From: an uncultured bacterium
GTDB lineage: Bacteria; Patescibacteriota; Minisyncoccia; Phycocordibacterales; Phycocordibacteraceae
DNA length: 64,000 bases
Assembly (NCBI GenBank): GCA_937879955.1
Contig: CALFMK010000001.1
Coordinates: 91,504-155,503 of the forward strand
Direction of reading: 5' to 3'
Made by a program: the position numbers and the translations under genes. Positions 31,132 to 57,993 of this stretch are shown here, piece after piece; the stretch's first letter is position 1; the number at the start of each line of letters is the position of its first letter. The notes under the pieces are model-generated. The model was not told the DNA's origin. It made no database searches and was given only the letters and a program-made list of their open reading frames with translations.

Positions 31132-31141
31132 ATGATTGCAG

Positions 31142-39171: not shown

Positions 39172-39579
39172 ATGCAGCAGAAGGATTATGCGCTCTGGCA
39201 TCCCATAAAAGTACGACTGAACGCGATCCCGGGATCAGTATTCTTCCATGAGCGAGAGGTCTGGTGGTGTGCAATCGGAGAGAACGTGGGATTTGAACAG
39301 GACGGTACGAGTCCATTATTTACCCGACCAGTTCTTATCTTGAAGAAGTTCAGCGCTGACACCTGTCTCATCGTGCCTCTCACGACGAAAGCCAAGAAGG
39401 GAAAACACTACTTCCCTCTCGGAGTGGTCGCTCGATCAGAGGCGGTAGCTCTCTTATCTCAGATACGTTCAATCGATAGGAGGCGCCTTACGAGCAAGCT
39501 CGCTACGGTCGATAAGGATACTTTCCAGATGCTTGTGAAGGCGATAATTGCGACATGTCTGCCATCACTGGATACATAA
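39172..39579 (+). CDS. MazF/PemK/EndoA-family endoribonuclease toxin-like protein, solitary
   Basis: 135 aa. The sequence G.EQDG..RPVLIL...T.IVPLTT.AKK...FPL....S.ALLSQIRSIDRRRLTSKLATVDKDTF aligns with B. subtilis EndoA (YdcE). It is about 48% GC against about 65% for the neighbours. No antitoxin ORF is apparent. Confidence 0.6.
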   Translation: MQQKDYALWHPIKVRLNAIPGSVFFHEREVWWCAIGENVGFEQDGTSPLFTRPVLILKKFSADTCLIVPLTTKAKKGKHYFPLGVVARSEAVALLSQIRSIDRRRLTSKLATVDKDTFQMLVKAIIATCLPSLDT

Positions 39580-41512: not shown

Positions 41513-43405
41513 TTATTCCTTCGGCTTTTCCTCGCTGAACTCGGCGTCGGTGGCGGCCTCAGGAGGCGTGTCGGTGCCCTGAGCCTCTCCCCCCGCCGGC
41601 TGCTCCTTCATCATGGCCTCGCCGATCTTCGAGAGCGAGGTGGAAAGCGCCTCGGACGCGGTCTTGATAGCATCCAGATCCTCTCCTTCGCGCGCGGTGC
41701 GCAGCAGGGCGATCTTCTCGTTCACTTCCGTGACGACGTCTGCCGGCGCCTTCTCGCCCGCATCCTTGATGGACTTCTCCGCGGTATAGATGAGCTGCTC
41801 CGCGAGGTTCTTCGCCTCAACGAGCTCCTTGCGCTTCGCGTCCTCGCCGGCATGCGCCTCGGCGTCCGCCTTCATCTTCTCGATGTCGGCCTCTGAGAGT
41901 CCGGTAGAGCCCTCGATGCGGATGGACTGCTCCTTGCCGGTGGTCTTCTCCACCGCCTTCACGGTGAGGATGCCGTTCGTGTCGAGATCGAAGGAGACCT
42001 CGACCTGCGGGAGTCCGCGAGGCGCCGGCGGAATGCCGTCGAGGTTGAAGCGGCCGAGCGACTTGTTGTCCGCAGCCATGGCGCGCTCGCCCTGCACTAC
42101 GTGGATCTCTACCGAGGTCTGGTTGTCGGATGCGGTCGAGAACACCTGGGAGCGCGAGGTAGGCACCGCGGTGTTGCGCTCGATGAGCTTGGTCGCCACG
42201 CCGCCCATGGTCTCGATGGAGAGCGAGAGCGGGATGACGTCGACGAGGAGGATGTCCTTCACGTCGCCCTGGAGGATGCCGGCCTGGATGGCAGCGCCGA
42301 TGGCGACCACCTCGTCCGGATTCACGTCGCGGTGCGGCTTCTTGCCGAAGAGCTTCTCCACCTCGTCCTGGATCTTCGGCATGCGGGTCTGTCCGCCCAC
42401 GAGGATGACCTCGCTCACCTCGCCGGCCTTGATGCCGGACGCCTCGAGCGCGCGCTTGGTGATGTCGATGGAGCGGGTGATGTACTCGTCCGCGAGCGAC
42501 TCGAGCGTCGCGCGGGAGAGCTTCACGAGGAGGTGCTGCGGGTTGCCGTCAGCGCCCACGGTGATGAACGGGATGTTCACCTCGGTCTCGGCTGCTGTCG
42601 AGAGCTCGTGCTTCGCCTTCTCGGCGCCCTCGTCGAGACGCTGGAGCGCGAGCGGGTCCTTCGTGACGTCGATGCCGGACTCCTTCTTGAACTCCTCCGC
42701 GAGGTAGCGGACGATCTTCTGGTCAATATCGCGTCCGCCCATGTGGCTGTCGCCGTCCGTGGACTTCACCTCGATCACGTCGTCACCCACCTCGAGCACG
42801 GACACGTCGAAGGTTCCTCCGCCGAAGTCATACACGACGATCTTCTCCTCCTTCTTCTTATTGAAGCCGTACGCGAGCGCCGCCGCCGTCGGCTCGTTGA
42901 TGATGCGGAGCACCTCGAGGCCCGCGACCTGGCCGGCCGCCTTCGTGGCTGCGCGCTGCGCATCGTCGAAGTACGCCGGTACCGTGATCACGGCCTGCGT
43001 GATGGTCTCGCCGAGCTTCTTCTCGGCGTCAGCCTTCAGCTTCGAGAGGATCATCGCGGAGACCTCCTCAGGACGGAAGTCCTTGTCGCCGAGATGCACC
43101 TCCACGCCGCCGCTCTGCCCTGCCTTGATCTCGTACGGGACGACATCCTTGTCCTTCTGCACCACCTCGTCCTTGAACGAGTGGCCCATGAAGCGCTTGA
43201 TGCCGTAGATGGTGTTCTTCGGGTTCGTCACCGCCTGGCGCTTCGCGAGCGTGCCGACGAGGCGCTCGCCGTTCTTCGCGATCGCTACCACCGACGGGGT
43301 CGTGCGCGTGCCTTCCGCGTTCTCGAGGACGCGCGGCTCGCCGCCCTCCATGATGGCCATGGCCGAGTTCGTGGTTCCGAGGTCGATACCGAGGATCTTT
43401 CCCAT
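41513..43405 (-). CDS. dnaK: Chaperone DnaK (Hsp70)
   Basis: 630 aa. Hsp70 signatures are present ([16 protein letters not shown], the VxxGGxxRxPxV region). Confidence 0.97.
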
Positions 43406-43492
43406 AGTGTGAATATGCTAGTTGGATAACGGCTCCCTATAAAATCGCCCTAGTACCCTATATTTTACGCTTCCCGCGCCCGGGTTCAAGCC

Positions 43493-44047
43493 CTATGCGC
43501 CGAAGCTCCCGACGCGCACCTTGGCCGGACGGACCACGAGGTCTCCGGCCTTCCATCCCGCCTCGAGGACGGCCGTGACCGTCTCGTCCTTCTCGGGCGC
43601 GTCCACCGGATCCTGTCCGAGGGCCTCATGGAGCGCAGGATCGAACGCTTCGCCTACGGCACCGAACTGCGCCAGGCCCAGGCTCCCGGCCGCGTCATGG
43701 AGCTGCTTCGCGATCGCCTGGAACGAGGCAGGGATCTCGCCTGCCTGCTCCGCGCGCGCGAGCGAGTCCATTGCGGTGATGAACGCGCGGGATGCCTTCA
43801 GGGTCCCGAGCTTCATGGCGTCCGCACGCTCCTCCTCGAAGCGCTTGAGCGCGTTCACGTAGTCAGCCTTCGCGCGCTGCCAGCCGTCGAGATTATCCTT
43901 GCTCTCCTGCTTAGCGCTCGCCAATTCTGCGCGCATCTTCGCGAGCTTAGTATCCGTGCGGGACTCCTGCTCCTCGAGCTCCGTCTCGCTCATCCCGTCC
44001 TCTTCGGCGCCGTCGCGCTCTACGATAAGGTCTTCATCCATATACAT
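43493..44047 (-). CDS. grpE: Nucleotide exchange factor GrpE
   Basis: 184 aa. An acidic N-terminus and coiled-coil are followed by the GrpE core (GWQRAKADYVNALKR...). Confidence 0.85.
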   Translation of the reverse strand: MYMDEDLIVERDGAEEDGMSETELEEQESRTDTKLAKMRAELASAKQESKDNLDGWQRAKADYVNALKRFEEERADAMKLGTLKASRAFITAMDSLARAEQAGEIPASFQAIAKQLHDAAGSLGLAQFGAVGEAFDPALHEALGQDPVDAPEKDETVTAVLEAGWKAGDLVVRPAKVRVGSFGA

Positions 44048-44092
44048 AGACTATGCCTGAAGCGGAGTTGCCAGTCAAAAGCTCTGGCTCCG

Positions 44093-44596
44093 CTACGGGG
44101 TGATATTGCACCTCGTGACCTTCGCGGTCACATACTGCGACCCTGCATTCTTGGTACCAATCGGGCACGTAGTATCCCCTTCGAGTATCATGATGATCTC
44201 GTATCCGCTCGCGCTCGTGTGATACATGGGGCCGTAGGTCCTGTCGGACGGCCCGGGTATCCTCGTGACGTCAATGAATGGGGCGAGCGCATTCCGGAGC
44301 GTGATAGAAGCGGAAGTTGACTCCGTGTAGGTCGCATCCCAGCAGAGACCGCCTGGAAAGCCGGTTCCTATACAGGCCCATGCTGCGTTACCTGGATAGT
44401 TCCCGGTGTCGGAATGATAGATCGCGAGCGCCTTCTGGTACTCCCGGATCTGCGCGACGTAGCTCGTGTTGCGACTGCGCTCGCGTGCCGTATTCAAGGA
44501 TGCGAGCACGACGGCGGAGAGTATGCCGATGATCGCGATTACCACCAGTAGCTCGATCAAGGTGAAGCCGGCGGGATTCTTGGCGCGGTATCGCAT
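44093..44596 (-). CDS. Type IV pilin-like protein, paralog A
   Basis: 167 aa reading AGFTLIELLVVIAIIGILSAVVLASLNTARERSRNTSYVAQIREYQKAL.... It is about 70% identical to the paralogs at 44654 and 45702. Confidence 0.85.
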   Translation of the reverse strand: MRYRAKNPAGFTLIELLVVIAIIGILSAVVLASLNTARERSRNTSYVAQIREYQKALAIYHSDTGNYPGNAAWACIGTGFPGGLCWDATYTESTSASITLRNALAPFIDVTRIPGPSDRTYGPMYHTSASGYEIIMILEGDTTCPIGTKNAGSQYVTAKVTRCNITP

Positions 44597-44653
44597 GTCA
44601 ATAGAGATTATGTATCGAAATGCTTGCTAAGGATACCTGCCGGACTGGGCTGA

Positions 44654-45163
44654 TCAGAGTCCCTGGTTGTATACGCTGCAGCGGGTAATGTTCCGTTCCG
44701 AATACTGGCTTGCTGTTACTTTCGTACCGATGGGACATGGTACCTCGCCTTCGAGTATGAGTATCATGTCGTACCCGCTCCCATTCGTATGGTACATGGA
44801 GCCATAGTAGCGGTCCGTCGGACCAGCGACTCTCGTGGCATCCATGTACGGAGAGACGGCGTTCCGAAACGCTATGGCCGTTCCGTTCGTCTCGTTGTAT
44901 GACGCATTATCCCAGCACATGCCCCCAGGGTGTCCGATGCCGAGGCATGCCCACGTGGCATTCCCTGGATAGCTTCCTTGTGCACTGAAATGCAATGCAA
45001 GCGCTTTCTGATATTCCTTCATCTGTGCGACGTAGCTCGCATTACGAGCCTTCTCGCGGGCGGTATTGAGCGACGCGAGCACCACAACACTGAGGATGCC
45101 GATGATGGCGATCACGACGAGGAGCTCGATGAGCGTGAAGCCGCGGGTTTCCTTCATGCGCAT
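44654..45163 (-). CDS. Type IV pilin-like protein, paralog B
   Basis: 169 aa reading RGFTLIELLVVIAIIGILSVVVLASLNTAREKARNASYVAQMKEYQKAL.... The ...CPIGTK... C-terminal segment is conserved. Confidence 0.85.
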   Translation of the reverse strand: MRMKETRGFTLIELLVVIAIIGILSVVVLASLNTAREKARNASYVAQMKEYQKALALHFSAQGSYPGNATWACLGIGHPGGMCWDNASYNETNGTAIAFRNAVSPYMDATRVAGPTDRYYGSMYHTNGSGYDMILILEGEVPCPIGTKVTASQYSERNITRCSVYNQGL

Positions 45164-45165
45164 AT

Positions 45166-45636
45166 CTAGCAGTTTATCGCGGTGTCGCCGTTCTTAAGAC
45201 GATACAAGCCTCCTCGTTCGAGATTGACCCGGAGACAGTAGTCGGCCCCTGACACCTGCGGCTCGTACGTGTAGTAATACGTCGTGTTGTTGACCGGGTC
45301 GACCGGAAGGTCCGGAATATACGTAGGCACGAGCGCCGCATGGATAAAAGATGCCGGGTCCCAGTCGGTTCCGGTGAGGGCAGTGCACGCGCCACCTGAG
45401 CTCCCGAGACTGGAATCGCAAGAGGTCTCGCCAGGATACTGCCCGGTGGCGAGATAGTAGACTTCGAGCGCCTTCGATATCTGCAGCAGGTCAGACTTCC
45501 GCTTCGCGTCGCGCGCGCCCATCCTCGCCGTATTCAAGGACGCGAGCACCACCGCGGACAGGATACCGATGATCGCAATCACGACGAGGAGCTCGATGAG
45601 GGTGAAGCCGCTGCGCGCACGAGGACGGTACTGCAT
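45166..45636 (-). CDS. Type IV pilin-like protein with a divergent C-terminal domain
   Basis: 156 aa reading SGFTLIELLVVIAIIGILSAVVLASLNTARMGARDAKRKSDLLQISKALEVYY.... It lies 2 nt from the neighbouring pilin gene. Confidence 0.85.
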   Translation of the reverse strand: MQYRPRARSGFTLIELLVVIAIIGILSAVVLASLNTARMGARDAKRKSDLLQISKALEVYYLATGQYPGETSCDSSLGSSGGACTALTGTDWDPASFIHAALVPTYIPDLPVDPVNNTTYYYTYEPQVSGADYCLRVNLERGGLYRLKNGDTAINC

Positions 45637-45701
45637 TCATTAAGAATATTAAGAAATGTCGCTATCTCCAAATAACAACTTCCCTTAGGACAGGCTTCGG
45701 C

Positions 45702-46223
45702 CTAGAGTCCCTGAGAGGTTATGTTGCAGCGAGTGAGGTTCTGCGAAGCGGCGCCGGCATCCACGATCTTCGTTCCGATCGGGCACGTAACGTCACCCTC
45801 GAGCATGAGTATGAACTCGTACCCGCTGCCGGCTGGCCGGTACATGGGTCCGTATACCCGGTCCGTAGGACCCGGCACCTTGCTCGCGTCTATGTAGGGC
45901 GAGACCGCTGCGCGGAACGCAACGGCTGTCGTGTTCGACTCGTTGTATCCGGCGCTGTTCCAGCATACGCCTCCCGGATAGCCGGTGCCGACGCAGCCCC
46001 AGGTGCTGTTGCCCGGGTAGCTGCCCTGGGCGCTGTAATGGAGCGCGAGCGCCTTCTGGTACTCCCTGATCTGCGCGACGTAGCTCGTGTTGCGGCTGCG
46101 CTCGCGCGCGGTATTCAACGACGCGAGCACCACCGCGGACAGGATGCCGATGATGGCGATCACGACGAGGAGCTCGATGAGCGTGAAGCCGCGTGGCGTT
46201 TCGGAGTTCAGGTTCCTTAGCAT
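45702..46223 (-). CDS. Type IV pilin-like protein, paralog C
   Basis: 173 aa reading RGFTLIELLVVIAIIGILSAVVLASLNTARERSRNTSYVAQIREYQKALALHY.... The N-terminal half is near-identical to paralog A. Confidence 0.85.
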   Translation of the reverse strand: MLRNLNSETPRGFTLIELLVVIAIIGILSAVVLASLNTARERSRNTSYVAQIREYQKALALHYSAQGSYPGNSTWGCVGTGYPGGVCWNSAGYNESNTTAVAFRAAVSPYIDASKVPGPTDRVYGPMYRPAGSGYEFILMLEGDVTCPIGTKIVDAGAASQNLTRCNITSQGL

Positions 46224-46239
46224 CGCCTAATGATAGCAG

Positions 46240-46761
46240 CTAGAGACCCTGTCCCTTCGATGCCTGGCTCGCGCGCTGGATAAGCTCGTCACGGAGCGCT
46301 TCGGCATCCGCTTTCGCGAGTCCTGGAAGCCTGCCTTCGGCGCCAGCGCCTGCCATGCCATAGCGGGAGAACGACGCGCTCGTGCCCGCGGTCTGGATCA
46401 TGAGGTCAGAGAGTCCGAGGAGCCGCGCGAGGATGCCGCGGTCTATGTCGACGTTCTGGATGCGGGTGTACGGTATCGTGACGTACTTCTTGTAGATCAC
46501 GCCGGACTCCTTCCGGAAGCCGAGCTCCGTGAGCTCGTACTTGAAGAACCGGTACGAGAGTACGGACCAGCCGTACGAGAGGAATGCGAACGCGATGAGC
46601 GCGACGACGCACCAGCCGATTACCTCTCCGAGATCGAGGAATCCTGTCTCGTCTACCGCTATTGAGATAACGGCAAGTGCGATCACGAACGAGAGCCACA
46701 GCACGTGCACGAGCGAGCCCGCGAAGAACAGCCAGACTGCCTTTGGATCGAGGTTTTTCAT
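46240..46761 (-). CDS. Bacterial PH-domain (bPH_2, YdbS/YdbT-like) membrane protein
   Basis: 173 aa. Two TM helices are followed by a bPH_2-like region (YRFFKYELTELGFRKESGVIYKKYVTIPYTRIQNVDIDRGILARLLGLSDL). Confidence 0.65.
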   Translation of the reverse strand: MKNLDPKAVWLFFAGSLVHVLWLSFVIALAVISIAVDETGFLDLGEVIGWCVVALIAFAFLSYGWSVLSYRFFKYELTELGFRKESGVIYKKYVTIPYTRIQNVDIDRGILARLLGLSDLMIQTAGTSASFSRYGMAGAGAEGRLPGLAKADAEALRDELIQRASQASKGQGL

Positions 46762-46779
46762 AGCATCCGTCCTAATAGC

Positions 46780-47172
46780 TTATTCCGTGGTATCGCCGAC
46801 GAACTCCTCATCGTCCTTCTCTGCGTCCGCCTTCGTGGCATGCACGACGCCGTCCTCGTGATGCGGAGTGGCGTAGATCGTATAAAGCTTCAACGGCTCG
46901 GAGCCGGTGTTCACGATATTGTGCTCGGTACCTGCCGGGATCACGGTAGCCGAGTCGGTCGCAAGGGCATGCTCCTCTCCGTCGAGGATCGCCTTTCCGC
47001 TCCCTGCTTCCACACGGATGAACTGGTCCTGTCCGTGGATCTCCTTTCCGATGTCGTCGCCGGGCTCGATGCTCATGACGACGAGCTGCATGTACGACGC
47101 CGTGTAGAGGACCTTGCGGAAGTTCTCGTTGTCCAGGGTCTCCTTCTCGATGTCTGTGACGAATCCTTTCAT
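46780..47172 (-). CDS. Cupin-domain protein
   Basis: 130 aa with a cupin_2 beta-barrel motif pattern (G.EIHGQDQFIRVEAGSGKAILDGEEH...IPAGTEHNIVNTG). Confidence 0.7.
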   Translation of the reverse strand: MKGFVTDIEKETLDNENFRKVLYTASYMQLVVMSIEPGDDIGKEIHGQDQFIRVEAGSGKAILDGEEHALATDSATVIPAGTEHNIVNTGSEPLKLYTIYATPHHEDGVVHATKADAEKDDEEFVGDTTE

Positions 47173-47239
47173 AGGCAGGTGGTTAGCTGATGATCACATG
47201 ATACCCCATGCCCGGTACGGGAAGGATGAAGCAAAGACA

Positions 47240-47266
47240 AAACCCGGCTTCCGCCGGGTTTTGTCG
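47240..47266. terminator. Bidirectional intrinsic terminator at the end of the ribosomal/rpoA operon
   Basis: AAAACCCGGC-TTCC-GCCGGGTTTTGTC. It lies 9 nt downstream of the rpsI stop. Confidence 0.6.
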
Positions 47267-47274
47267 TATCGAAT

Positions 47275-47679
47275 CTAGCGCTTGGACCACTGCGGGCTCT
47301 TGCGGGCCTTGCGGAGTCCTGGCTTCTTGCGCTCCACCGCGCGAGGATCGCGCTTGAGGAAGCCTGCAGCCTTGAGGGCTGGGCGGCTGCCCTCCTCGAT
47401 GAGCGTAAGGGCGCGCGCCATCGCGTGACGGACGGCCTCAGCCTGGGCTGCGACGCCGCCTCCCTTCACCATAGCCTTCACCTCGTACTCCCGCTTCCAC
47501 TCGCCTGCGCGGAAGACGTCGCCGGTGATGGACTCGCGCTCGGCGGTCTTGAAGTACTCGCGGGCGGTCTGGCCGTTCACGGTGACAGAGCTCTCCTTCG
47601 CAGGAGTCATCTTCACGCGAGCGCTGGCGGTCTTGCGACGGCCGACGGCGGTGACGTAGGACTGAGTGTTCTCGGGCAT
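47275..47679 (-). CDS. rpsI: 30S ribosomal protein S9
   Basis: 134 aa. The C-terminal signature reads ...RKARKSPQWSKR. Confidence 0.95.
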   Translation of the reverse strand: MPENTQSYVTAVGRRKTASARVKMTPAKESSVTVNGQTAREYFKTAERESITGDVFRAGEWKREYEVKAMVKGGGVAAQAEAVRHAMARALTLIEEGSRPALKAAGFLKRDPRAVERKKPGLRKARKSPQWSKR

Positions 47680-47687
47680 AGTAAAGA

Positions 47688-48065
47688 TTAATCGGTGATA
47701 GTAAGGCGCTTCATGCGTTCCTTGCGGAGCTTGTTGCGCGGGATCATGCCGTCCACGGCCTTGCGGATAGCCTCGCTGACGCCCTTCTTCATGAGGAGGT
47801 TCGAGAGCGACGTGACGCGGAGTCCTCCTGGGAAGCCGGTGTAGCGGGTGTACTCCTTGCCCTTGATGCGCTTCTCGGTCATCACGAGCTTGGACGCGTT
47901 CACGATCTCAACCTCGACCGGCATGACCTCGTTCTGGAGGTACTGCGCGGACTTCTTGCCGAGGAGCACGGAGGCGGCCTCAGACGCGACGCGTCCGAGC
48001 GAGCCGCCTGCGGCGTCGATCGTGTAGAGCGTGCGCTCTCCCTTCTGTGTCTTGGTGGTAGTCAT
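47688..48065 (-). CDS. rplM: 50S ribosomal protein L13
   Basis: 125 aa. It is L13-like over its full length (GRVASEAASVLLGK...). Confidence 0.9.
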   Translation of the reverse strand: MTTTKTQKGERTLYTIDAAGGSLGRVASEAASVLLGKKSAQYLQNEVMPVEVEIVNASKLVMTEKRIKGKEYTRYTGFPGGLRVTSLSNLLMKKGVSEAIRKAVDGMIPRNKLRKERMKRLTITD

Positions 48066-48066
48066 G

Positions 48067-48420
48067 TTATACGAATGCGATATACGCCTGCTTGCGGCCG
48101 TCGGTCGCGGTAGCCGCGCGCTTCACGATGCGGGTGTAGCCGCCTGCGCGCTCGACGTAGCGAGGAGCGATCGTCGCGAAGAGCTTCGCGGTCGATTCGT
48201 CGTCGTTGCCGAGCTTCGCGTTCACGAGGCGGCGGTTCGCGACGGAATCGACGCGAGCGTGAGACACGAGCTTCTCGATCATTGGACGGAGCTCCTTGGC
48301 CTTGGCCTCGGTCGTCGAGATGCGCTCGTGGATTATGAGGGAACGCATGAGGGAACGCATGAGCGCTACGCGCTGGTCATGCGGTCGTCCGAACGTCCTT
48401 CCTTTGTGGTGATGGCGCAT
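48067..48420 (-). CDS. rplQ: 50S ribosomal protein L17
   Basis: 117 aa. The N-terminus (MRHHHKGRTFGRPHDQR...HERI.TT) is the L17 N-terminus. Confidence 0.9.
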   Translation of the reverse strand: MRHHHKGRTFGRPHDQRVALMRSLMRSLIIHERISTTEAKAKELRPMIEKLVSHARVDSVANRRLVNAKLGNDDESTAKLFATIAPRYVERAGGYTRIVKRAATATDGRKQAYIAFV

Positions 48421-48468
48421 ATGCTTGTTTTAACACGATTTCCGACCGGAGTCCAAATCTTCCTTATA

Positions 48469-49431
48469 TTACTCGCCCTTGAGCTCGAGGCCCAGCTTGT
48501 CGAGGGCTTCGACGATCTCAGCGACGGCCTTGTCGCCGACGCCGTCGAGGTCCTTGAGCGCCGACGGGGTCTTCTTCACGAGGCCTGCGACGGACTTGAT
48601 GCCCGCCTCGTCGAGCGCGGTCTCGATGCGCGAGCCGAGCCCGAGCTCCTCGATCTTCACCTTCGCAGGGTCCTTGCCCGGAGCCTTCTCCGAGACGGTC
48701 GCGGCCTTCGGCGCGAACTCAGCCTCGTCAGCGGAGGCTGATGCCTCCTGGAAGCCGATCACTGCCGAGAGCTGCTGGATCATGGTCTCGATCGAGCGCT
48801 CGAGCGCCTCGCGCGGGGTGATGGTGCCGTTGGTCTCGATGAGGATGCGGAGGCGGTTGAAGTCCGTGCGGTCTCCGACGCGCATGTTCTCAACCTCGTA
48901 GTTCACGCGGCGGATCGGGGTGAACGTCGCGTCGAGCGCGATGGTGCCGATGTCCACCTTCTCCTTCGTGAGAACCTCGCGAGCGACGTAGCCGAGGCCG
49001 CGCTCGATGGTCGCCTCGAGCTCGAACGACACCTTGCCCGAGACGTCAGCAATGTGCGTGTCCGGGTTCGCGATCTCGACCTGAGAAGGAAGCTTGAAGT
49101 CCGCTGCGGTGACCTGCTTAGGGCCCTTCACGGAAAGCGAGATGGTCTGCGGCTCGTCGCCGTGGAGCATGAAGTGCACGCGCTTGAGGTTGAGGAGCAC
49201 CTCCATGACGGACTCGCGAACGCCCTCCATGGTAGCGAACTCGTGCGAGACGCCCTCGATCTTCACCGAGGTGACGGCTGCGCCCGGAAGGGACGCGTGG
49301 ATGATGCGGCGGAGCGAGTTGCCGAGGGTGTGGCCGTAGCCCGGATAGAGCGAATCTATCTCGTAGATTCCCTGGACGCCTTCCTCGGAGACGACGCGGG
49401 GCTTAGACGGGAGCGTGATGTTGTTTTCCAT
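48469..49431 (-). CDS. rpoA: DNA-directed RNA polymerase subunit alpha
   Basis: 320 aa. The N-terminal domain (GYGHTLGNSLRR) and the alpha-CTD HhH region are both present. Confidence 0.9.
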   Translation of the reverse strand: MENNITLPSKPRVVSEEGVQGIYEIDSLYPGYGHTLGNSLRRIIHASLPGAAVTSVKIEGVSHEFATMEGVRESVMEVLLNLKRVHFMLHGDEPQTISLSVKGPKQVTAADFKLPSQVEIANPDTHIADVSGKVSFELEATIERGLGYVAREVLTKEKVDIGTIALDATFTPIRRVNYEVENMRVGDRTDFNRLRILIETNGTITPREALERSIETMIQQLSAVIGFQEASASADEAEFAPKAATVSEKAPGKDPAKVKIEELGLGSRIETALDEAGIKSVAGLVKKTPSALKDLDGVGDKAVAEIVEALDKLGLELKGE

Positions 49432-49475
49432 GACTCAATCAGATTAGACCAACAATGGTGCTGAACGTATAAAGA

Positions 49476-50090
49476 CTAGCGGCTGTAGAACGAGAGCACG
49501 GCGATGAGGTCGCCCGCAGGAGACGCTGCCTCCTCGGTCGGTACTTCCTGCATGCCGCCCTCCATCTTCTTGGCATCCCATGAGAGCCACGAAGAGAGCG
49601 TCGGGCGCTCGTTGAACTTCTCAGCGAAGTTCTCGAAGAGCACGGCGCCCTTGGAGCCGTCGCGGACGGCGATCTTCTCGCCGACGCGCATGGCGCGGGA
49701 CGGGATCGTCGTCTTGACGCCGTTCACGGTGATGTGGCCGTGGGAGACCATCTGGCGAGCAGCACGGCGCGTCGGCGCGAGGCCGAGGCGGTAGACGATG
49801 TTGTCGAGACGCATCTCGAGGAGGCGGTGGAGGGTCTGCGCAGGCGGCTGTCCGTGCGTCGAGGTAGCGGTAGCGACGTAGTTGCTGAACTGCTTCTCGG
49901 AGAGGCCGTAGGTCATGCGGACCTTCTGCTTCTCGAGGAGCTGCTTGCCGAACTCGGTCTGGTTCTGGCGGCGTCCCTTCTTGTTGCGCGCTGCGCGCTC
50001 CTCCGCGATCGCGAACTTCTGGGTCTGGGTCTTCTCGAAGACGGATGCGCCGAGGCGCTTCGCGATCTTGTACTTAGGTCCGATTTTCAT
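49476..50090 (-). CDS. rpsD: 30S ribosomal protein S4
   Basis: 204 aa. The S4 N-terminal region and the S4 RNA-binding domain (RLDNIVYRLGLA.TRR.ARQ.V.HGH..VNG) are present. Confidence 0.9.
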   Translation of the reverse strand: MKIGPKYKIAKRLGASVFEKTQTQKFAIAEERAARNKKGRRQNQTEFGKQLLEKQKVRMTYGLSEKQFSNYVATATSTHGQPPAQTLHRLLEMRLDNIVYRLGLAPTRRAARQMVSHGHITVNGVKTTIPSRAMRVGEKIAVRDGSKGAVLFENFAEKFNERPTLSSWLSWDAKKMEGGMQEVPTEEAASPAGDLIAVLSFYSR

Positions 50091-50111
50091 AGGTAAAGAG
50101 GGGTTCTAGGG

Positions 50112-50546
50112 CTATACGCGACGAGCCTTCTTAGGGCGAGGGCCGTTGTGCGGGACCGGGGTCGCATCCTTGATGGCGCGGATAGCGATGCCCTTTCCAG
50201 CGAACGCGCGGAGCGCGGACTCGCGGCCGGCGCCGATGCCGCGGATGACGACGGAAGCCTCCTTGACGCCAATGAGGAGGGCCTTGTCGCCGAGGAGCTC
50301 GCCGACCTTAGCGGCAGCGTAGGGAGTGGACTTGCGCGCACCGGAGAAGCCGAGAGCACCTGCCGAAGAGGACATGATCGCATTGCCCTTCTCGTCGGTG
50401 AGGACGGCCTTCGTGTTGTTGAAGGTAGCCTCGACATGGAGGACGCCGCGCTCGAGGCGCTTCTTGACGGCCTTGGACATCGCGCGGTCCTTGCGACCCT
50501 GGTCCATGCCCTTCCCGGACTTCTTGATGATGCGTTTCTTTCCCAT
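50112..50546 (-). CDS. rpsK: 30S ribosomal protein S11
   Basis: 144 aa with the S11 core (HVEATFNNT...GARKSTPYAA...). Confidence 0.95.
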   Translation of the reverse strand: MGKKRIIKKSGKGMDQGRKDRAMSKAVKKRLERGVLHVEATFNNTKAVLTDEKGNAIMSSSAGALGFSGARKSTPYAAAKVGELLGDKALLIGVKEASVVIRGIGAGRESALRAFAGKGIAIRAIKDATPVPHNGPRPKKARRV

Positions 50547-50582
50547 AGTAATTTAGTCGTTGGATAAAAAGTGAGCTCAGGA

Positions 50583-50963
50583 TTATGTCTTCTCGAGCGT
50601 ACGGCGGCCGCTGCCCATCGTCTTGCGGGTGTTTCCGCGGACGGTGCGGGAGTTCGTCTTGGTGCGCTGCGCGCGGACCGGGAGGCGGCGCTCATGGCGG
50701 ATGCCGCGTGCGGAACGGATGTCCTTGAGGCGCTTGATGTTCTGGCTCTCCTCGCGGCGGAGCTCGCCCTCGATGGTGTAGGCCTCGGAAAGGGTGCGGA
50801 TCTTCTGCTCCTCGTCAGCGGAGAGATCGCTTCCCTTGCGGGTCGCCTCGACGCCGGCCTCCTTGAGGATGTCGAGCGCGCGCTTCGGGCCGATGCCGAA
50901 GATAAGAGGCAGCGCGTATGCGAGCTGCTTGTCGTCAGGGAGTGTCACGCCGGCGATACGCAT
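50583..50963 (-). CDS. rpsM: 30S ribosomal protein S13
   Basis: 126 aa. The S13 N-terminus reads MRIAGVTLP. Confidence 0.95.
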   Translation of the reverse strand: MRIAGVTLPDDKQLAYALPLIFGIGPKRALDILKEAGVEATRKGSDLSADEEQKIRTLSEAYTIEGELRREESQNIKRLKDIRSARGIRHERRLPVRAQRTKTNSRTVRGNTRKTMGSGRRTLEKT

Positions 50964-51014
50964 GGGATACGAGGGTTAGAAGAAGAAAAGGATAAGAAGA
51001 AACGGAAGCGGCTG

Positions 51015-51131
51015 ATTAGCCCTGGCGCGCCTTGCGGCGTGGGTTACGCTTGTTGATACGGTACAAGCGTCCGCGACGGCGGACGATGATATCGCCTGGC
51101 TGCTGAACTTTAACGGATGCGCGTACCTTCA
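51015..51131 (-). CDS. rpmJ: 50S ribosomal protein L36, the cysteine-less (non-zinc) type. It is not in the ORF track.
   Basis: 38 aa reading [38 protein letters not shown]. It is L36-like, lies between infA and rpsM, and has none of the usual Cys-Cys-Cys-His ligands. Confidence 0.75.
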
Positions 51132-51141
51132 TCGTGGGATA

Positions 51142-51357
51142 TTAGCTTAGCCGCCTCACGATGCGCGCGCGGCCCCCGTACGGGTCGACGACCAGTTCTA
51201 CCTGGTCGCCTACCAGCACACGGATCCTGTGCAGACGCATCTTTCCTGCGAGGTAAGCAAGCTGGAGCTCTCCCGATGGCATCCGTACCCTGAAAAGGGA
51301 ATTAGGAAGCACCTCCTCTACGGAGCCGGTTGCTGCGCCTTCTTTACTTACCTCCAT
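51142..51357 (-). CDS. infA: Translation initiation factor IF-1
   Basis: A start at MEVSKEGAATGSVEEVLPNSLFRVR gives 71 aa, which aligns residue-for-residue with E. coli IF-1. The tracked ORF begins at an upstream TTG. Confidence 0.9.
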   Translation of the reverse strand: MEVSKEGAATGSVEEVLPNSLFRVRMPSGELQLAYLAGKMRLHRIRVLVGDQVELVVDPYGGRARIVRRLS

Positions 51358-51411
51358 GTGAAGCTTCATCATCCTACCAAGGATGAGAATGAGCGTCAAC
51401 CGGTTATCCCA

Positions 51412-52677
51412 CTATTTGCTTGGTTCTTCGCCGTTCGTGACCGATACCTTGATCTTCGCCGGGTCCGACGGGAACGAGGTGCTCCAGAACGGGCGCAGGA
51501 CGAGGGACGCCCGCTCCACCTCCGGGAAGCCCGAGAGCACGGTTTCCGCGCTCGAACGGCTCTTTCCGGCCACGGCGGCCGCTATCTTGCTCTCGTCCAC
51601 GGTCCAGAGGACGGTAGCGGTGCCTGAGAGCGAGAACGCGAACTCGGTAGCGCCGACGCCCGGAAGGTCCCCTACCGGAACGAGCGTGAGACCGCTCTCC
51701 TTCTCGAGGGTGACCGGCTGGCCGCTATAGGAGCCCACGACCTGGTACGCGAGCGCCTTCGCGAGGGCTCCTGACGGGAATACCACGGCGGTAGCGGTCG
51801 CCTTCTGGGAGATCTCCACCTTGCCGCCTGCGGCTGCACTGTCCGGCTGCGGCTCGTAGGTCATGCGGCTCGCGCCCGGGATGAGGACGTAGCCCTCAGG
51901 AATCGCGGCCTTGAGCGCCGCATCGATTGCGGGCGTGAGCTCGGCACGGAGCTCGTCACCCTTCTTCTCGCGGGTCGCAGTAGCGACGCTCGGGCGCGGG
52001 CCGGCGAATCCGCCCTTCATGGCCTCCTTCGAGCTTGCGGTGACCTGGGTGAAGGTGCTGCCTCCCTTGAGGCCTGGGAGCGTGAAGGTGGTCGGACCGA
52101 CGTTGTAGCTCTCGCCGGTGGCATCCGCGTAGACGGTGGTCTCGAGCGTGCCCGGAGTGCCGTTCGCGGCCTTCGGCACGGTCACGGAGTCGCGGATGCG
52201 GAAGATCTTCCCGTCCGGCGTCTCGAAGCGAGTGTTCTTGATGAGCTGCTGCGGGACGTCCTGCTTGTTCTCGATGACGATGGTCCCCTGCGCCGACTGG
52301 TTCACCGTCTCGGTTCCTTCGGATTCGACGCTCACGCTCGCCACCTTCTCGACGGTGATTACCTCGAACGGCAGGTCGCCGCCGGACGCGGTCGCGATAA
52401 ACTCGCCTGCGACCGACGTCGGATTCTCGGTCGCCGTGACCGTGACCTCGGCGCCGGAGAACGCGAAGAGCGCGCCTGCGGACAGGAGGATGACGATGAG
52501 CCCGATGATCGCGGTCCCAACCGGGAACTTCTTGGACGGCTTCTTCGCGCGCGGCCCTACGGGGCGCTCGTACGCGGGGCGCTCGACAGGTGCCGAAGGG
52601 GTATACGAAGGGACGTCTCCCCCTTCCATGGCACGGCGGCGGGACGGCGGGATGATGTCATTCAGGTTCTTTTGCAT
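51412..52677 (-). CDS. Membrane-anchored hypothetical protein
   Basis: 421 aa. A cytoplasmic basic N-terminus is followed by one TM helix (FPVGTAIIGLIVILLSAGALFAF). The large extracytoplasmic portion is T/S/V-rich and beta-rich. It sits upstream of infA. Confidence 0.6.
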   Translation of the reverse strand: MQKNLNDIIPPSRRRAMEGGDVPSYTPSAPVERPAYERPVGPRAKKPSKKFPVGTAIIGLIVILLSAGALFAFSGAEVTVTATENPTSVAGEFIATASGGDLPFEVITVEKVASVSVESEGTETVNQSAQGTIVIENKQDVPQQLIKNTRFETPDGKIFRIRDSVTVPKAANGTPGTLETTVYADATGESYNVGPTTFTLPGLKGGSTFTQVTASSKEAMKGGFAGPRPSVATATREKKGDELRAELTPAIDAALKAAIPEGYVLIPGASRMTYEPQPDSAAAGGKVEISQKATATAVVFPSGALAKALAYQVVGSYSGQPVTLEKESGLTLVPVGDLPGVGATEFAFSLSGTATVLWTVDESKIAAAVAGKSRSSAETVLSGFPEVERASLVLRPFWSTSFPSDPAKIKVSVTNGEEPSK

Positions 52678-52838
52678 AGAAAACGTGGAAAAGCCTCGCT
52701 ATGGATAGTACGGGGGTAAGTATACACCCGGGAAGTTGTGTCTCCTTCACGCCGGGGAAAAGCTCCATTTGCCCGATATGCCGATCTGTGACATACCTGA
52801 GACAGTGATCGCTGGACCTTTTGCCGAAGGAGAGACCG

Positions 52839-53093
52839 ATGTCCGAGTCCCCTCTCAGTATCCCGTTCCCGACATTCGCTGACGCCAAGAGGGCGCTCTA
52901 CCTGTGCACCGTCGGAGGCGAGGACCGGGCCTTCCGCATCGCGCTCGCCCGCGCGAACACGGAAGAGAACCTGCGAGACCTCTTCGACTATCTTGACCAG
53001 GGTGACGGAGTATTCGAGAAATATCACCTCGCCCTCCAGCTCTTGGCCAAGCTCGAGAAGCTCAGGCTGGAGCGTGGGCCGGTGGCCGCGTGA
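52839..53093 (+). CDS. Small hypothetical protein of 84 aa
   Basis: AGGAGA lies 6 nt upstream of the ATG (MSESPLSIPFPTF...). A bidirectional terminator follows it. The overlapping 159-aa minus-strand ORF is judged to be an artefact. Confidence 0.45.
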   Translation: MSESPLSIPFPTFADAKRALYLCTVGGEDRAFRIALARANTEENLRDLFDYLDQGDGVFEKYHLALQLLAKLEKLRLERGPVAA

Positions 53094-53104
53094 CGAAAAC
53101 CAAG

Positions 53105-53138
53105 AAGCCTCGCGCATCGCGCGAGGCTTCTCTGCTAT
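53105..53138. terminator. Bidirectional intrinsic terminator between the small plus-strand gene and alaS
   Basis: AAGCCTCGCGC-ATC-GCGCGAGGCTT with flanking T-rich runs on both strands. Confidence 0.55.
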
Positions 53139-53148
53139 CAAACGATAC

Positions 53149-55065
53149 CTAATCGAGCACTGCCTTGATGCGTCGGACGCCGGATGCTACCGCCTCTTCC
53201 TTCACGATGCGGAACGTCTTATCGCCGTCATGGATCTCCTTGGTGTTCGTGACGTGCGGGCCGCCGCAGAACTCGAGCGAGAACGCGTTCGGAATGTCAG
53301 GGTTCTCCTCGGTAGCATGGACCGGGCCCACGGAGTACACGGACACCATGTCCGGGTACTTCACGCCGAACTCCATCTGCGCGCCGAGCTTCTCGGCCTC
53401 CTCGCGCGGCATCACGGTCCGGGTGACCGGAAGGTCCTGATAGATGGTCTCGTTCACGATCTTCTCCACTTCCGACTTCTGCTCGTCCGTCATCTTGCCA
53501 GGGGAGCTGAAGTCGATGCGCAGGCGCTCGGAGGTGATGTTGCTGCCCCGCTGTTTCACCTCGGGACCGAGCACGGCCTGGAGCGCCGCGAGCAGGATGT
53601 GGTGCGTGGTGTGATACCGGACCGTCTGCTCGGCATGGTCGGCGAGGCCGCCCGCGAAGCGCTGCGCGCCGCCTGCCCTCGAGGTGTCCTGGTGCTTCTT
53701 CATGAGCTCCATCACGGCTACGAGGTCTATCTCTATCTCGCGCTCGTTCGCGATCTCTTCCGTGAGCTCGATAGGGAAGCCGTAGGTCGTGAAGAGGGTG
53801 AACACGTCCTCAGGGGTGATGGTTCCCTTGGATACGAGCTTCTCGAGCTCGCGAAGGCCCGTCGTGAGGGTCTTGCGGAACTTCTCCTCTTCCTTCTCGA
53901 TCTCCTCGCGAATCTTCTCCGTGTTCGCGAGCACGTGCGGGTAATGGTCCGCATAGACCTCTCCGTACCCCTTAGCGACGTCCGCTAAGACCGCGTCATG
54001 GATGCCGAGGCGGTCCGATTCGCGGATCGCACGGCGGAGCAGGCGGCGGAGCACGTAGCCGGCCTCGGAATTGGACGGCGTCACGCCCTCGGCGAGCATG
54101 AACGAGGACGCGCGCATGTGGTCGAGGATGATGCGGAACGCTTTCTTCGTGGCCTCGTCCTCGTCATAGGACTTCCCGGAGCGCTCCTCGATGATGGCGC
54201 GCGGCTTCTCGAACACGTCGAGCGCGAACACGTCAGGGATGCCGAGCGTGGCGATAGCGAGGCGCTCGAGGCCGCCGCCGAAGTCCACGTTCTGCTTCGG
54301 GAGGTTCGCGAAGGAGCCGTCCTCCTGCTTCACGAACTGCATGAACACGGAGTTCCCGATCTCGATGAAGCGGCCGCAGTCGCAGTTCGGATGGCACTCG
54401 GGGCCCCAGGCGGTGTCATGCGGGAGCCCGAAGTCGTAGAAGACCTCGGAATCAGGGCCTCCCGGCTCGCCTGCCGGCATGTTCGCCGGGACACCCGCGC
54501 GGCTCCACCAGTTCTTCTTGGCGTCATACGCGAAGATGCGCGCGCCCTGCATGCCCTTCACGTAGCCGTCCGCTTCGGAGCCGATGTTGAGGAATCCGGC
54601 GTCGATGCCCTTCTCCTTATAGAGCTTCTGCCAGAGCTCTACCGCCTCCATGTCGACCGGCATGCCCGTGGACTCGTCTCCGGCGAAGACCGTGACGTAG
54701 AGCTTCTCTGGGTCGAGCCCGAGGCCCTCTTCTTTCGAGGTGAGGTACTCGAACACCCACGGGAGCTGTTCCTGCTTGAAATAGTCGCCGAGCGACCAGT
54801 TGCCGAGCATCTCGAAGAACGTCGTATGGCGGTTGTCACCCACCTCCTCGATGTCGCCTGCCCGGAAGCTCATCTGCGAGTTCACGATGCGGTTGCCGGC
54901 CGGATGCGCCTCGCCGAGGAGGTACGGGACCAGGGGCTGCATGCCGGAGGACGTGAAGAGGGTCGTCGGATCGTTCCCTGGGACGATCGGCGCGGAAGGG
55001 ACCTGCGCATGGCCGCGCTTCTCGTAGAATGCCAGGAACCTGCTGCGTACGTTGGATACGTTCAT
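53149..55065 (-). CDS. alaS: Alanine--tRNA ligase, a short form lacking the C-terminal C-Ala (DHHA1-like) domain
   Basis: 638 aa. It has the class II catalytic core (FTSSGMQP, GNWSLGDYFK), a tRNA-recognition domain, and the editing domain HxxxH...CGGPHV. It then ends, whereas typical AlaRS proteins are about 870 aa. A clean terminator follows. Confidence 0.9.
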   Translation of the reverse strand: MNVSNVRSRFLAFYEKRGHAQVPSAPIVPGNDPTTLFTSSGMQPLVPYLLGEAHPAGNRIVNSQMSFRAGDIEEVGDNRHTTFFEMLGNWSLGDYFKQEQLPWVFEYLTSKEEGLGLDPEKLYVTVFAGDESTGMPVDMEAVELWQKLYKEKGIDAGFLNIGSEADGYVKGMQGARIFAYDAKKNWWSRAGVPANMPAGEPGGPDSEVFYDFGLPHDTAWGPECHPNCDCGRFIEIGNSVFMQFVKQEDGSFANLPKQNVDFGGGLERLAIATLGIPDVFALDVFEKPRAIIEERSGKSYDEDEATKKAFRIILDHMRASSFMLAEGVTPSNSEAGYVLRRLLRRAIRESDRLGIHDAVLADVAKGYGEVYADHYPHVLANTEKIREEIEKEEEKFRKTLTTGLRELEKLVSKGTITPEDVFTLFTTYGFPIELTEEIANEREIEIDLVAVMELMKKHQDTSRAGGAQRFAGGLADHAEQTVRYHTTHHILLAALQAVLGPEVKQRGSNITSERLRIDFSSPGKMTDEQKSEVEKIVNETIYQDLPVTRTVMPREEAEKLGAQMEFGVKYPDMVSVYSVGPVHATEENPDIPNAFSLEFCGGPHVTNTKEIHDGDKTFRIVKEEAVASGVRRIKAVLD

Positions 55066-55118
55066 ATATAAGGGTGCCTTAGTAGGATGACGATACCATA
55101 GCGGCTATACTGGACGCC

Positions 55119-57092
55119 ATGGCTAAGAAACACGCTTCCTGGGGCTTCGACGTGACCGAACTCACCCTTTCAATCCGTCCGCAGGACGACTTCTATCATC
55201 ACGCGCACAAGAAATGGATGGACAAGAATCCCATCCCGAAGGAGGAGTCGCGCTGGGGCACGTTCATGATCGTACGGTACGAGACCGAGAAGCAGGTCCG
55301 CGCCATCGTCGAGGAAGTGGCCGAGAGGAAGGGGCTTCCTGCCGGAAGCAGCGAGCAGATGGTCCGCGACCTGTACCGCTCCGGCATGGATATGGAGCGC
55401 CGCAATGCGCTCGGCCTCGCGCCGCTGTCCCCGCTCCTTGAGAAGATCGACGCGATCGAGGACCAGGAGGACCTGCAGCGCGTCATCGCGGAACTCCATC
55501 GCGCGGACGTCGGCGTCATCTGGGGCGCGGGCGTCGACCAGGACATGAAGGATAGCGAATCCTATGCGCTCTACCTCGGCCAGGACGGCCTCGGCATGCC
55601 GGACCGCGACTATTATCTCAAGGACGACGCCGAATCGAAGCGCGTGCGCGAGGCATACCGCGGCCATGTCGAGAAGCTGTTCATGCTCATGGGAGTCCCG
55701 AAGAAGGGATCCGCATCCTCGCGCGATACCGTGCTTCGCATCGAGACCGCGCTCGCGAAGGTATCGATGAGCAAGGAGGTGATGCGCGATCCGGACGCGA
55801 TCTATCACAAGTTCACGCTCGCGAAGCTGAAGAAGCTCGCGCCTGCGATCGACTGGAACCTCTATCTGAAGCGCATCGGCGGACAGAAGGCCGGCTACTA
55901 CCTCGTGATGCAGCCCGCGTTCTTCGAGCGCGCGAGCGCGATGCTCGAGGAGGTCTCGATCGCGGACTGGAAGACCTACCTCTCCTTCCACCTCGTGAAC
56001 GACTATGCCGGGGCGCTCTCGGAGCCGTTCGTGAAGCAGAGCTTCTCCTTCTACGGGACCGTGCTCACGGGCGTGAAGGCCATGAAGCCGCTCTGGCGCC
56101 GCGTCCTCTCGACCGTGAACGGCAGCCTCGGCGAGGTGCTCGGGAAGCTCTACGTCGAGCGGCACTTCCCGCCCGAGGCGAAGAAGAAGATGAACCTCCT
56201 CGTCGACGACCTCTTCACGGCGTACGAGGCCCGTATCCGATCGCTCGACTGGATGAGCCCCGCGACCAAGCGGAAGGCGCTCCTGAAGCTCGCCTCCTTC
56301 AACCGGAAGATCGGCTACCCGGACCGCTGGCGCTCGTACAAGGGCCTCGAGATACGGGCCGACGACTACGTCGGCAACATCCTGCGCGCGAGCGAGTACG
56401 AGCATAAGCGCCACTTGCGCCGTCTCGGGAAGCCGATGGACCGCAAGGAGTGGCTCATGTACCCGCAGACCGTGAACGCGTACTACCAGCCCACGATGAA
56501 CGACATCGCGTTCCCGGCCGCCATACTCCAGCCGCCGTTCTTCGGCTTCGATTTCGACGATGCGGTCAACTACGGCTCCATCGGCGCCGTGATCGGGCAC
56601 GAGATAACGCACGGCTTCGACGACGAGGGCTCCAAGTTCGATGCCAAGGGCAACCTCAAGAGCTGGTGGACCGCGGAGGACCGTAAGCGCTTCATGGCGA
56701 AGGCCAGGAAGGTCGAGAAGCAGTTCGACTCGTACACGGTCGCGGATGGCGTGAAGGTGAACGGCAAGCTCACGCTCGGCGAGAACATCGCGGACCTCGG
56801 CGGCCTCTCCATCGCCTTCGACGCGTACAAGCTCCAGCTCGCGCGCGCGGGACGCCACGACATCGACGGCCTCACGCCCGAGCAGCGGTTCTTCTTCGGG
56901 TTCGCCATGTTCGAGCGCGAGAACGCCCGCCCCGAGTTCACGAAGACCCAGGTCCTCACGGACCCGCATGCGCCGGGCGTGTTCCGCATCAACGGCCCGG
57001 TCTCGAACTTCGAGCCGTTCTACGACTCGTTCGGCGTGAAGAAGGGCGACGGGCATTTCCGTGCCCCGAAGGACCGCGAGATGGTCTGGTAG
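55119..57092 (+). CDS. pepO: M13-family zinc metallo-endopeptidase, PepO or neprilysin-like
   Basis: 657 aa. The HEITHGFDDEG (HExxH) motif, ENIADLGG, and the C-terminal ...GDGHFRAPKDRE.VW are present. Confidence 0.9.
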   Translation: MAKKHASWGFDVTELTLSIRPQDDFYHHAHKKWMDKNPIPKEESRWGTFMIVRYETEKQVRAIVEEVAERKGLPAGSSEQMVRDLYRSGMDMERRNALGLAPLSPLLEKIDAIEDQEDLQRVIAELHRADVGVIWGAGVDQDMKDSESYALYLGQDGLGMPDRDYYLKDDAESKRVREAYRGHVEKLFMLMGVPKKGSASSRDTVLRIETALAKVSMSKEVMRDPDAIYHKFTLAKLKKLAPAIDWNLYLKRIGGQKAGYYLVMQPAFFERASAMLEEVSIADWKTYLSFHLVNDYAGALSEPFVKQSFSFYGTVLTGVKAMKPLWRRVLSTVNGSLGEVLGKLYVERHFPPEAKKKMNLLVDDLFTAYEARIRSLDWMSPATKRKALLKLASFNRKIGYPDRWRSYKGLEIRADDYVGNILRASEYEHKRHLRRLGKPMDRKEWLMYPQTVNAYYQPTMNDIAFPAAILQPPFFGFDFDDAVNYGSIGAVIGHEITHGFDDEGSKFDAKGNLKSWWTAEDRKRFMAKARKVEKQFDSYTVADGVKVNGKLTLGENIADLGGLSIAFDAYKLQLARAGRHDIDGLTPEQRFFFGFAMFERENARPEFTKTQVLTDPHAPGVFRINGPVSNFEPFYDSFGVKKGDGHFRAPKDREMVW

Positions 57093-57304
57093 GTATCAGA
57101 TAATGAGGAAGCACCGTGACCCTAAGAGAGCCACGGTGCCTTTGGGATGGGTCCGGAACGTTCCGGCCCAGGGAGAGGTCGCCACTGCCAATGGAACTAT
57201 ACGCGAGGACATGCGACTGCCGTTGTGTGCATCCCGAGCACGCGCGAGCAGTAGGCCAACAGCCTATCGACATCTGCAGATACTATATATCCGTTTCGGA
57301 TTTC

Positions 57305-57970: not shown

Positions 57971-57993
57971 GAGCACAGCATACCAAAGACGAA

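Follow-up and report, generated by a model that had tools for sequence, protein, structure and literature searches.

A probable type IV pilin repertoire in a Paceibacteria/Parcubacteria bacterium, with a constrained N-terminus and occasional exchange between neighbouring genes

Both type IV pili and a large family of pilins are enriched in bacteria that belong to the Candidate Phyla Radiation (CPR) (PMC6744442). The type IV pili of CPR bacteria are thought to be the main organ of host contact, so the make-up and evolution of the pilin repertoire bear on host specificity. In the cultivated saccharibacterium TM7x (Nanosynbacter lyticus), 12 pilins are encoded at 4 loci, and only the N-terminal 10–25% is common to them (PMC11623550). 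In Streptococcus sanguinis, the pilins PilE1 and PilE2, which are 78% identical, co-assemble at about 4:3 (PMC6497953, PMC10628169), and in Neisseria the pilS donor copies lack a promoter, a ribosome-binding site, and the 5' part of the coding region (PMC4534519). Here, we describe seven pilin-like genes in a 64-kb stretch of contig CALFMK010000001.1 (assembly GCA_937879955.1), referred to below as the window, four of which form an array at 44093–46223. The RpoA protein of the window was 83–92% identical to proteins from metagenome-assembled genomes (MAGs) of Candidatus Paceibacterota, Parcubacteria, and Patescibacteria. The seven genes very probably represent the major-pilin-like subunit repertoire of a type IV pilus (type IV filament) in a Paceibacteria/Parcubacteria bacterium of the CPR, which evolved by duplication, loss, and occasional conversion. 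No new mechanism is revealed by the locus; it is an ordinary lineage-specific pilin repertoire.

The closest described counterparts are the multi-pilin repertoires of CPR/Patescibacteria (TM7x; fam000005, Meheust et al., 2019), with which the locus shares many pilin genes per small genome, distributed over several loci. As in those repertoires, the signal for the prepilin peptidase PilD and the N-terminal helix are conserved while the C-terminal domains diverge (PMC11623550, PMC6744442), and the conserved Cys pairs found here fit the idea of a CPR-enriched thiol-disulfide oxidoreductase. However, TM7x belongs to Saccharimonadia, whereas the bacterium studied here belongs to Paceibacteria. In addition, the pilin genes of the window are located between housekeeping genes (the division and cell wall, dcw, cluster, and the interval between a bPH_2 gene and grpE), away from machinery genes, and all seven keep a 25-residue N-terminus that is 96–100% identical.

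Seven pilin genes and their relationships

A six-frame scan of the window for the N-terminal motif, including a looser version of it, detected exactly seven pilin open reading frames (ORFs), all on the minus strand, and none beyond these; their number and positions agreed with a preceding sequence-only reading of the same DNA. Each protein scored well above the cut-offs of PF07963 (Pfam N_methyl; 33.6–37.7 bits in 7/7, cut-off 21.2) and TIGR02532 (33.9–38.2 in 7/7, cut-off 16.3). The proteins begin with a short basic leader ending in Gly, followed by FTLIELLVVIAIIGILS(A/S/V)VVLASL, which can be written as the consensus xGFTLIELLVVIAIIGILSxVVLASL for all seven. The leaders were 8–17 residues long (Gly-1 included) and contained K or R ahead of the G-FTLIE junction; Gly-1, Phe+1, and Glu+5 were present in 7/7. 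The N-terminus as read previously, (R/K/S) followed by GFTLIELLVVIAIIGILS(A/S/V)VVLASL, was thus recovered in every protein, except that the residue preceding Gly was K, R, R, A, R, S, and R, so that Ala had been omitted from the first position. Pilin C showed the type IV pilin fold, namely a long N-terminal alpha-helix with a hydrophobic first half and a globular domain with an antiparallel beta-sheet (the lollipop shape).

The four genes of the array lie head-to-tail on the minus strand, separated by gaps of 65, 2, and 57 nt, and are flanked by the bPH_2 gene (46240–46761) and by grpE-dnaK. Pilin C (45702–46223) encodes a prepilin of 173 amino acids with the leader MLRNLNSETPRG, followed by FTLIE, four conserved Cys residues, and a C-terminal loop CPIGTK...TRCN. 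Pilin B (44654–45163; 169 amino acids) is of the same type and was 68% identical to C and 63% to A, and pilin A (44093–44596; 167 amino acids), the third member of this A/B/C type, is located 45 nt upstream of grpE. The CPIGTK segment was common to all three, as had been noticed from the letters. Among themselves, A, B, and C were 63–68% identical in protein, slightly below the value of about 70% read earlier, and 63–69% in DNA; their synonymous sites were near saturation outside shared tracts, while the N-terminal 25 amino acids were the same except for one residue in B. Pilin X (45166–45636; 156 amino acids) is interleaved between C and B, its stop lying 2 nt ahead of the start of B. It is a different, weakly GspG-like type, and its globular part was only 27–30% identical to those of A, B, and C. 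Therefore, the previous description of a tandem array of four paralogs stands for the arrangement of the genes, but not for pilin X, which is not a close paralog of the others.

The remaining three genes were found within the dcw cluster (12984–17916), in the order MraY, pilin 16335, FtsW, pilins 14655 and 14156, MurG. The weakly GspG-like pilin between MraY and FtsW (16335–16838, minus strand) was the closest relative of pilin X in the window (50% identity overall, 37% in the globular part). Its ORF is initiated by TTG, and the true start is probably an ATG at codon 6 or 7, giving the leader MMKRG or MKRG. The gene between FtsW and MurG (14655–15173, minus strand) has a unique globular domain, 19–28% identical to those of all other pilins in the window, and an alternative start at codon 12 (leader MTPRRG). 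Another unique globular domain is encoded immediately upstream of MurG (14156–14650, minus strand). In total, four unrelated globular types stand behind a single N-terminus. Neighbors belonging to dcw were found at 0/80 other pilin loci, and a literature search turned up no paper on pilin genes inside the dcw cluster. A relative found in two samples (L007, positions 1–3773, and L008) has the order MraY, two A/B/C-type pilins, FtsW, MurG; thus, this slot differs between the window and the relative in both the type and the number of pilins.

Full-length homologs of the A/B/C type numbered about 45, and the N-terminus was invariant in 43 family members from many genomes. A profile search with this type, counted as clusters at 50% identity, gave 361,398 matches at E<=0.001, 43,750 at E<=1e-10, and 64 at E<=1e-30, with no sharp boundary. 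The locus therefore adds a well-defined four-cysteine pilin subfamily of about 170 amino acids that grades into a much larger family. Scanning GTDB species representatives with pilin C yielded a single distant N-terminal match, in a Kiritimatiellae MAG. When metagenomes were scanned with the family alignment, the generic FTLIELLVV pattern prevailed and every match was limited to the N-terminus; the scan served instead as an external control for the 5' block and for the frequency of tandem pilin arrays. Such arrays were common in the metagenome loci, the maximum being 10 N-terminal motifs within 7.5 kb (L026). The closest non-syntenic homologs of pilin C (67–70% identical) each stood alone, flanked by an EamA transporter gene and a cupin gene (L003, 4894–5397; L005, 6105–6650). 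The same contigs encode an RND efflux pump, a two-component system, and a photolyase; the setting is quite unlike that of the window, although a cupin gene again adjoins the pilin.

Established type IV pilin biology suggests how these proteins would be used. The product of each gene would be a prepilin whose short basic leader ends in Gly, and cleavage ahead of Phe1, followed by methylation of this residue, would be carried out by a PilD-type peptidase. The hydrophobic helix running from FTLIE to VVLASL would anchor the subunit in the membrane and subsequently pack in the filament core, with Glu5 being required for assembly. Because the same peptidase, platform, and filament core would serve all subunits, the N-terminal protein segment is expected to be under very strong purifying selection, while the globular domains would be free to diverge. 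The closest functional analog of A, B, and C is probably the tandem PilE1/PilE2 pair of S. sanguinis, where likewise adjacent full-length paralogs of the major type share an identical alpha1N in a cell without an outer membrane. However, three copies at 63–68% identity are present here, with an unrelated pilin gene interposed and outside any pil operon. A, B, and C might either co-assemble in one filament or be used alternatively.

It is unlikely that some or all of the seven are instead pseudopilins, either of a competence filament for DNA uptake (Com type) or of a secretion pseudopilus. The best partial NCBIfam matches were indeed to the N-termini of GspG, GspH, ComGC, and ComGE, and CPR bacteria show natural competence and possess ComEC (PMC6744442, PMC10187176). 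However, 0/7 proteins reached the cut-off of a specific equivalog (GspG, GspH, PilA, or ComG), and the partial matches were confined to the common N-terminus. For the GspG/PulG pseudopilin of type II secretion, the TIGR01710 scores were 41–52 in the window against a cut-off of 88.85, the best one (52.1) covering model positions 1–71 only and pilin X scoring 52, and PF08334 (T2SSG) was approached by pilin X alone (19.5 against 21). No type II secretion context was found around the genes of the window, and an outer membrane is expected to be absent; CPR bacteria lack both the outer membrane and PilQ (PMC6744442), which makes a classical type II secretion system unlikely. Moreover, within type IV filaments the difference between pseudopilins and type IV pili is mostly a matter of naming.

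Protein constraint and codon bias in the 5' block

The sequence-only reading had described a block of about 70 nt at the 5' end of the seven genes as 85–95% identical and had regarded it as a nucleotide module, which could serve for recombination or co-regulation. The measured range was wider, with a pairwise identity of 71–92% over 87 nt and 78–93% over a 54-nt core. The 68-mer quoted in that reading matched the window, with up to three mismatches allowed, only at 46123–46190 (no mismatches; pilin C) and at 45542–45609 (two mismatches; pilin X). Shuffled sequences gave 0 matches to the repeat; thus, as a sequence feature it is far beyond chance.

The expectation from protein conservation was obtained by simulation: for each of the 25 invariant residues, codons were chosen independently according to their usage in the window's non-pilin genes. 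The codon usage of these genes is strongly biased, with a G+C content at third codon positions (GC3) of about 0.87 and preferences such as CTC for Leu (0.73), ATC for Ile (0.84), and TTC for Phe (0.97). Under this null, 13.2 of 25 codons were expected to be identical, with a nucleotide identity of 82.2 +/- 1.5%; the observed values were 15.0 codons and 84.4%. At such a GC3, the codons would be nearly fixed, and this alone would give an identity of about 82%.

Loci from other genomes provided an external comparison. The exact 18-residue string GFTLIELLVVIAIIGILS was found in 8/80 unrelated metagenome loci with GC contents of 0.33–0.64, and the 54-nt identity of these loci to the copies in the window followed GC: it was 0.66–0.79 at GC 0.33–0.47, 0.83 at GC 0.58 (L016), and 0.87 at GC 0.64 (L014), compared with 0.86 within the window. 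The pilins of the window therefore resemble those of an unrelated high-GC genome as closely as they resemble one another, and the module is a side effect of codon bias together with a peptide that does not vary. Thus, the DNA similarity of the 5' block is almost entirely that of an identical protein segment encoded at a GC3 of about 0.87, and the proposal of a separate nucleotide module does not hold. The chief practical lesson of the locus is one of caution, since near-identical nucleotide "modules" shared by paralogs in high-GC genomes can be by-products of protein constraint and codon bias and, at the same time, break short-read assemblies.

No common element was found in the upstream regions and leader peptides of the seven pilins. 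Because these regions are unrelated, a role of the block in co-regulation, also proposed earlier, is unlikely. Scanning the array for sigma-70 promoters and terminators was uninformative: it revealed 2 promoter-like sites, with 1.4 expected, and none of them was upstream of any pilin; inverted repeats were absent from the array.

Exchange among neighboring genes, and comparison with relatives and strains

The longest exact repeat among the seven genes was a run of 53 nt shared by pilin C (46141–46193, minus strand) and pilin B (45093–45145, minus strand), extending over module codons -1 to +16 and a further 2 nt. The next longest run in any other pair was 27 nt, and a Sawyer-type permutation gave P=0.0008 for the B–C run. 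Two short-read (Logan) contigs from other samples, L090 at its end and L009 at its start, break inside this repeat, which indicates both that those strains carry it and that k-mer assemblies are broken by it. A second tract connects pilins A and C: the 63-nt segment RERSRNTSYVAQIREYQKALA of pilin C (46044–46106, minus strand) was 97% identical, with two differences, to pilin A at 44423–44485 (minus strand). It forms the core of a block of similarity of about 110 nt between two genes that are otherwise about 60% identical, and in the codon alignment the informative sites over aligned nt 85–195 favored A+C by 26:1 (P=0.005). At amino acids 38–65, A and C were each other's best match among 20 family members, which was not the case elsewhere; outside this segment, the best matches of pilin A came from other genomes. 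Since relatives of C carry similar residues in amino acids 38–65, the conversion was likely directed from C to A, with the tract in pilin A as the probable recipient.

The same slot in relatives shows further turnover. The order on contig L002 is a cupin gene, a gene for a 170-residue protein, three pilins, GrpE, DnaK; on L004 it is a cupin gene, two pilins, GrpE, DnaK; and on L006, which was 83.5% identical to the window in nucleotides, a pilin is followed by GrpE and DnaK. The slot between the cupin or bPH_2 gene and grpE thus holds three pilins in L002, two in L004, at least one in L006, and four in the window. The three L002 copies clustered together in the tree, and L002_1 is a chimera: it was nearest to L002_3 over nt 88–313 (47:9 sites) and to L002_2 over nt 321–501 (32:11), with P=1e-4 for each. 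A switch point was located at about nt 81–88 in each of the two trios (window and L002), at the end of the hydrophobic module, where the longest available identity is found. Two simpler accounts were considered and rejected. Array members do not correspond by position, as the grpE-adjacent L002_3 is B-like (69% identity to B, 53% to A); and unequal crossing-over is not preferred for the L002 chimera, since the gene order, with the chimera ahead of both its parents, is not what one event would produce, and conversion would explain the chimera better.

These sequences point to a small but real residue of exchange between neighboring paralogs. In the history that we consider most consistent with them, the A/B/C type would have expanded by tandem duplication beside grpE, occasional homologous recombination over short tracts would have copied patches between neighbors, in the trio and likewise in the syntenic arrays, the tracts ending inside or next to the module, and the number and content of pilins in the slot would have changed by gain and loss across relatives. 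The locus illustrates how a conserved chromosomal slot can undergo duplication, loss, and conversion over short tracts. The expectation that the array is a substrate for gene conversion was therefore borne out by the mosaic tracts in the trio and by the chimeric L002 copy, on evolutionary time scales.

In one relative (JGI 3300044815, RpoA 92% identical), the contigs L091 (13920–14119) and L006 (1–150) seem to adjoin each other through an overlap of 12 nt with 1 mismatch. Here, a copy of about 100 nt, comprising a pilin upstream region, the leader, and GGTTTTAC (G-F-T), is located some 115 nt upstream of the actual pilin, its sequence diverging thereafter, and a Kazal-like gene of 190 amino acids follows bPH_2 in place of C, X, and B. 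The solo copy could be a deletion scar ending at the module start or an artifact of the contig ends.

We regard it as improbable that the 5' module was selected at the DNA level as a recombination handle, through which cassettes would be exchanged between the copies and between the dcw and grpE slots, diversifying the pilus surface for host attachment. In favor of such a handle are the excess codon identity in some pairs (22/25 for C–B, 21/26 for C–X), the 53-nt exact run in B and C, the mosaic switches near aligned nt 81–88 in both trios, the MraY/FtsW slot that holds a GspG-like pilin in the window but two A/B/C-type pilins in L007 and L008, and the solo copy that stops at the module start. 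However, identity overall is only slightly higher than the codon null predicts (0.844 against 0.822), unrelated high-GC genomes reach an equal identity, and the peptide is conserved across genomes between which conversion is impossible. Exact identity does not exceed 14 nt in 5/21 pairs and is below 25 nt in most, which makes the block a poor substrate for homologous recombination. End-points of crossovers would gather passively in any conserved segment, and the solo stub lies at contig ends with a putative join. An extended form of this proposal, in which pilin genes of this Paceibacteria lineage occupy a few fixed housekeeping slots (MraY/FtsW/MurG and bPH_2/grpE) and the module acts as a homology arm for swapping globular cassettes within and between them, has an equally slim chance of being correct. 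If it were true, an ultra-small episymbiont could cheaply alter its adhesive surface, and perhaps its host range, with expression tied to cell-division and chaperone operons.

Several observations weigh against a repertoire shaped by protein constraint, duplication, loss, and occasional conversion, and should be set beside it. The module slightly exceeded the null in codon identity (P about 0.03 for the mean); in the best pair, 21/25 codons were identical (P=0.018 for the maximum over 21 pairs). Protein constraint and codon bias thus do not fully explain the module. The P-values for mosaicism in the trio were moderate, 0.003–0.005 before correction for 6 tests. Co-located pilins in other tandem arrays share only 43–60% of their first 25 amino acids, compared with 96–100% here. 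This stricter N-terminus may mean that all seven belong to a consensus, major-pilin-like class and that the usual divergent minor pilins are encoded elsewhere. Finally, PilB, PilC, PilD, PilM, PilN, PilO, and PilT were absent from the 40 window proteins scanned, so that a working machine is assumed.

Evidence on variation within the population was thin, coming from two short-read strain-variant contigs from other samples that cover pilin A, 90% of pilin B, and the leader and module start of pilin C. Contig L009 was 98.9% identical to the window over 42880–45121, and L090 was 98.0% identical over 46164–57971. Pilin A showed 0 differences in 504 nt relative to L009 and an identical protein. Pilin B showed 2 differences in the 468 nt covered, one being V26A, which restores the consensus Ala, and the other synonymous, while the leader and module start of pilin C were identical in the strain variant. 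Divergence along 15 kb was patchy, with 0–36 differences per 500 nt, and the pilins were at the low end. For grpE, 21 differences were counted between the window and L009. As a separate observation, 15 of the 25 differences between the window and L009 fall within 52 nt of grpE (43910–43961, codons 29–46), including a compensating 1-nt deletion and insertion, so that this small patch is highly divergent within a stretch that is 99% identical elsewhere.

It is hardly credible that this locus undergoes programmed antigenic or phase variation as in Neisseria pilE/pilS, where donor cassettes convert one expressed pilin at high frequency: tandem related pilin sequences, mosaic tracts bounded by short conserved segments, and variable Cys-bounded C-terminal regions between conserved motifs recall that system, but all seven genes are complete ORFs with a start codon, a leader, and an N-terminus, unlike the truncated pilS donors (PMC4534519), the guanine quadruplex (G4) motif (G3+N1-7)x4 is absent from both strands of the whole window, the paralogs are only 63–68% identical with synonymous sites near saturation outside the tracts, and no hypervariation was seen in the two strain contigs. 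The suggestion of such variation was therefore left unsupported, and exchange probably was rare and evolutionary rather than programmed. Both for a recombination handle and for antigenic variation, the near-invariance of pilins A and B in the two strain contigs and the protein-level explanation of the 5' similarity largely decide against the sequence-only reading, whereas chimeric copies do occur.

Neighboring genes and base composition

The region at 44–46 kb had a GC content of 0.577. The GC3 of pilins A, B, X, and 14156 was 0.68–0.76, compared with a median of 0.87 for the other genes, a comparison biased by the gene filter of GC3>0.7; the lower values may mean weaker codon adaptation or a foreign origin. 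A stretch at 28000–32000 also had a low GC content (0.52–0.55, against about 0.62) and contained genes for a GNAT acetyltransferase and an S9 prolyl-oligopeptidase-type protein, and it may be a horizontally acquired island.

A lone gene for a PemK/MazF-type toxin was located on the plus strand (39172–39579), between dnaJ and a gene for a membrane protein of 168 amino acids. Large secreted proteins were encoded at 3847–9848 and 24890–27010, with domain combinations that comprised a beta-helix with PG_binding_1, Big_13, Kazal with PG_binding_1, and an S8 subtilase with an Ig-like domain. This is surface and host-interaction content typical of CPR bacteria.

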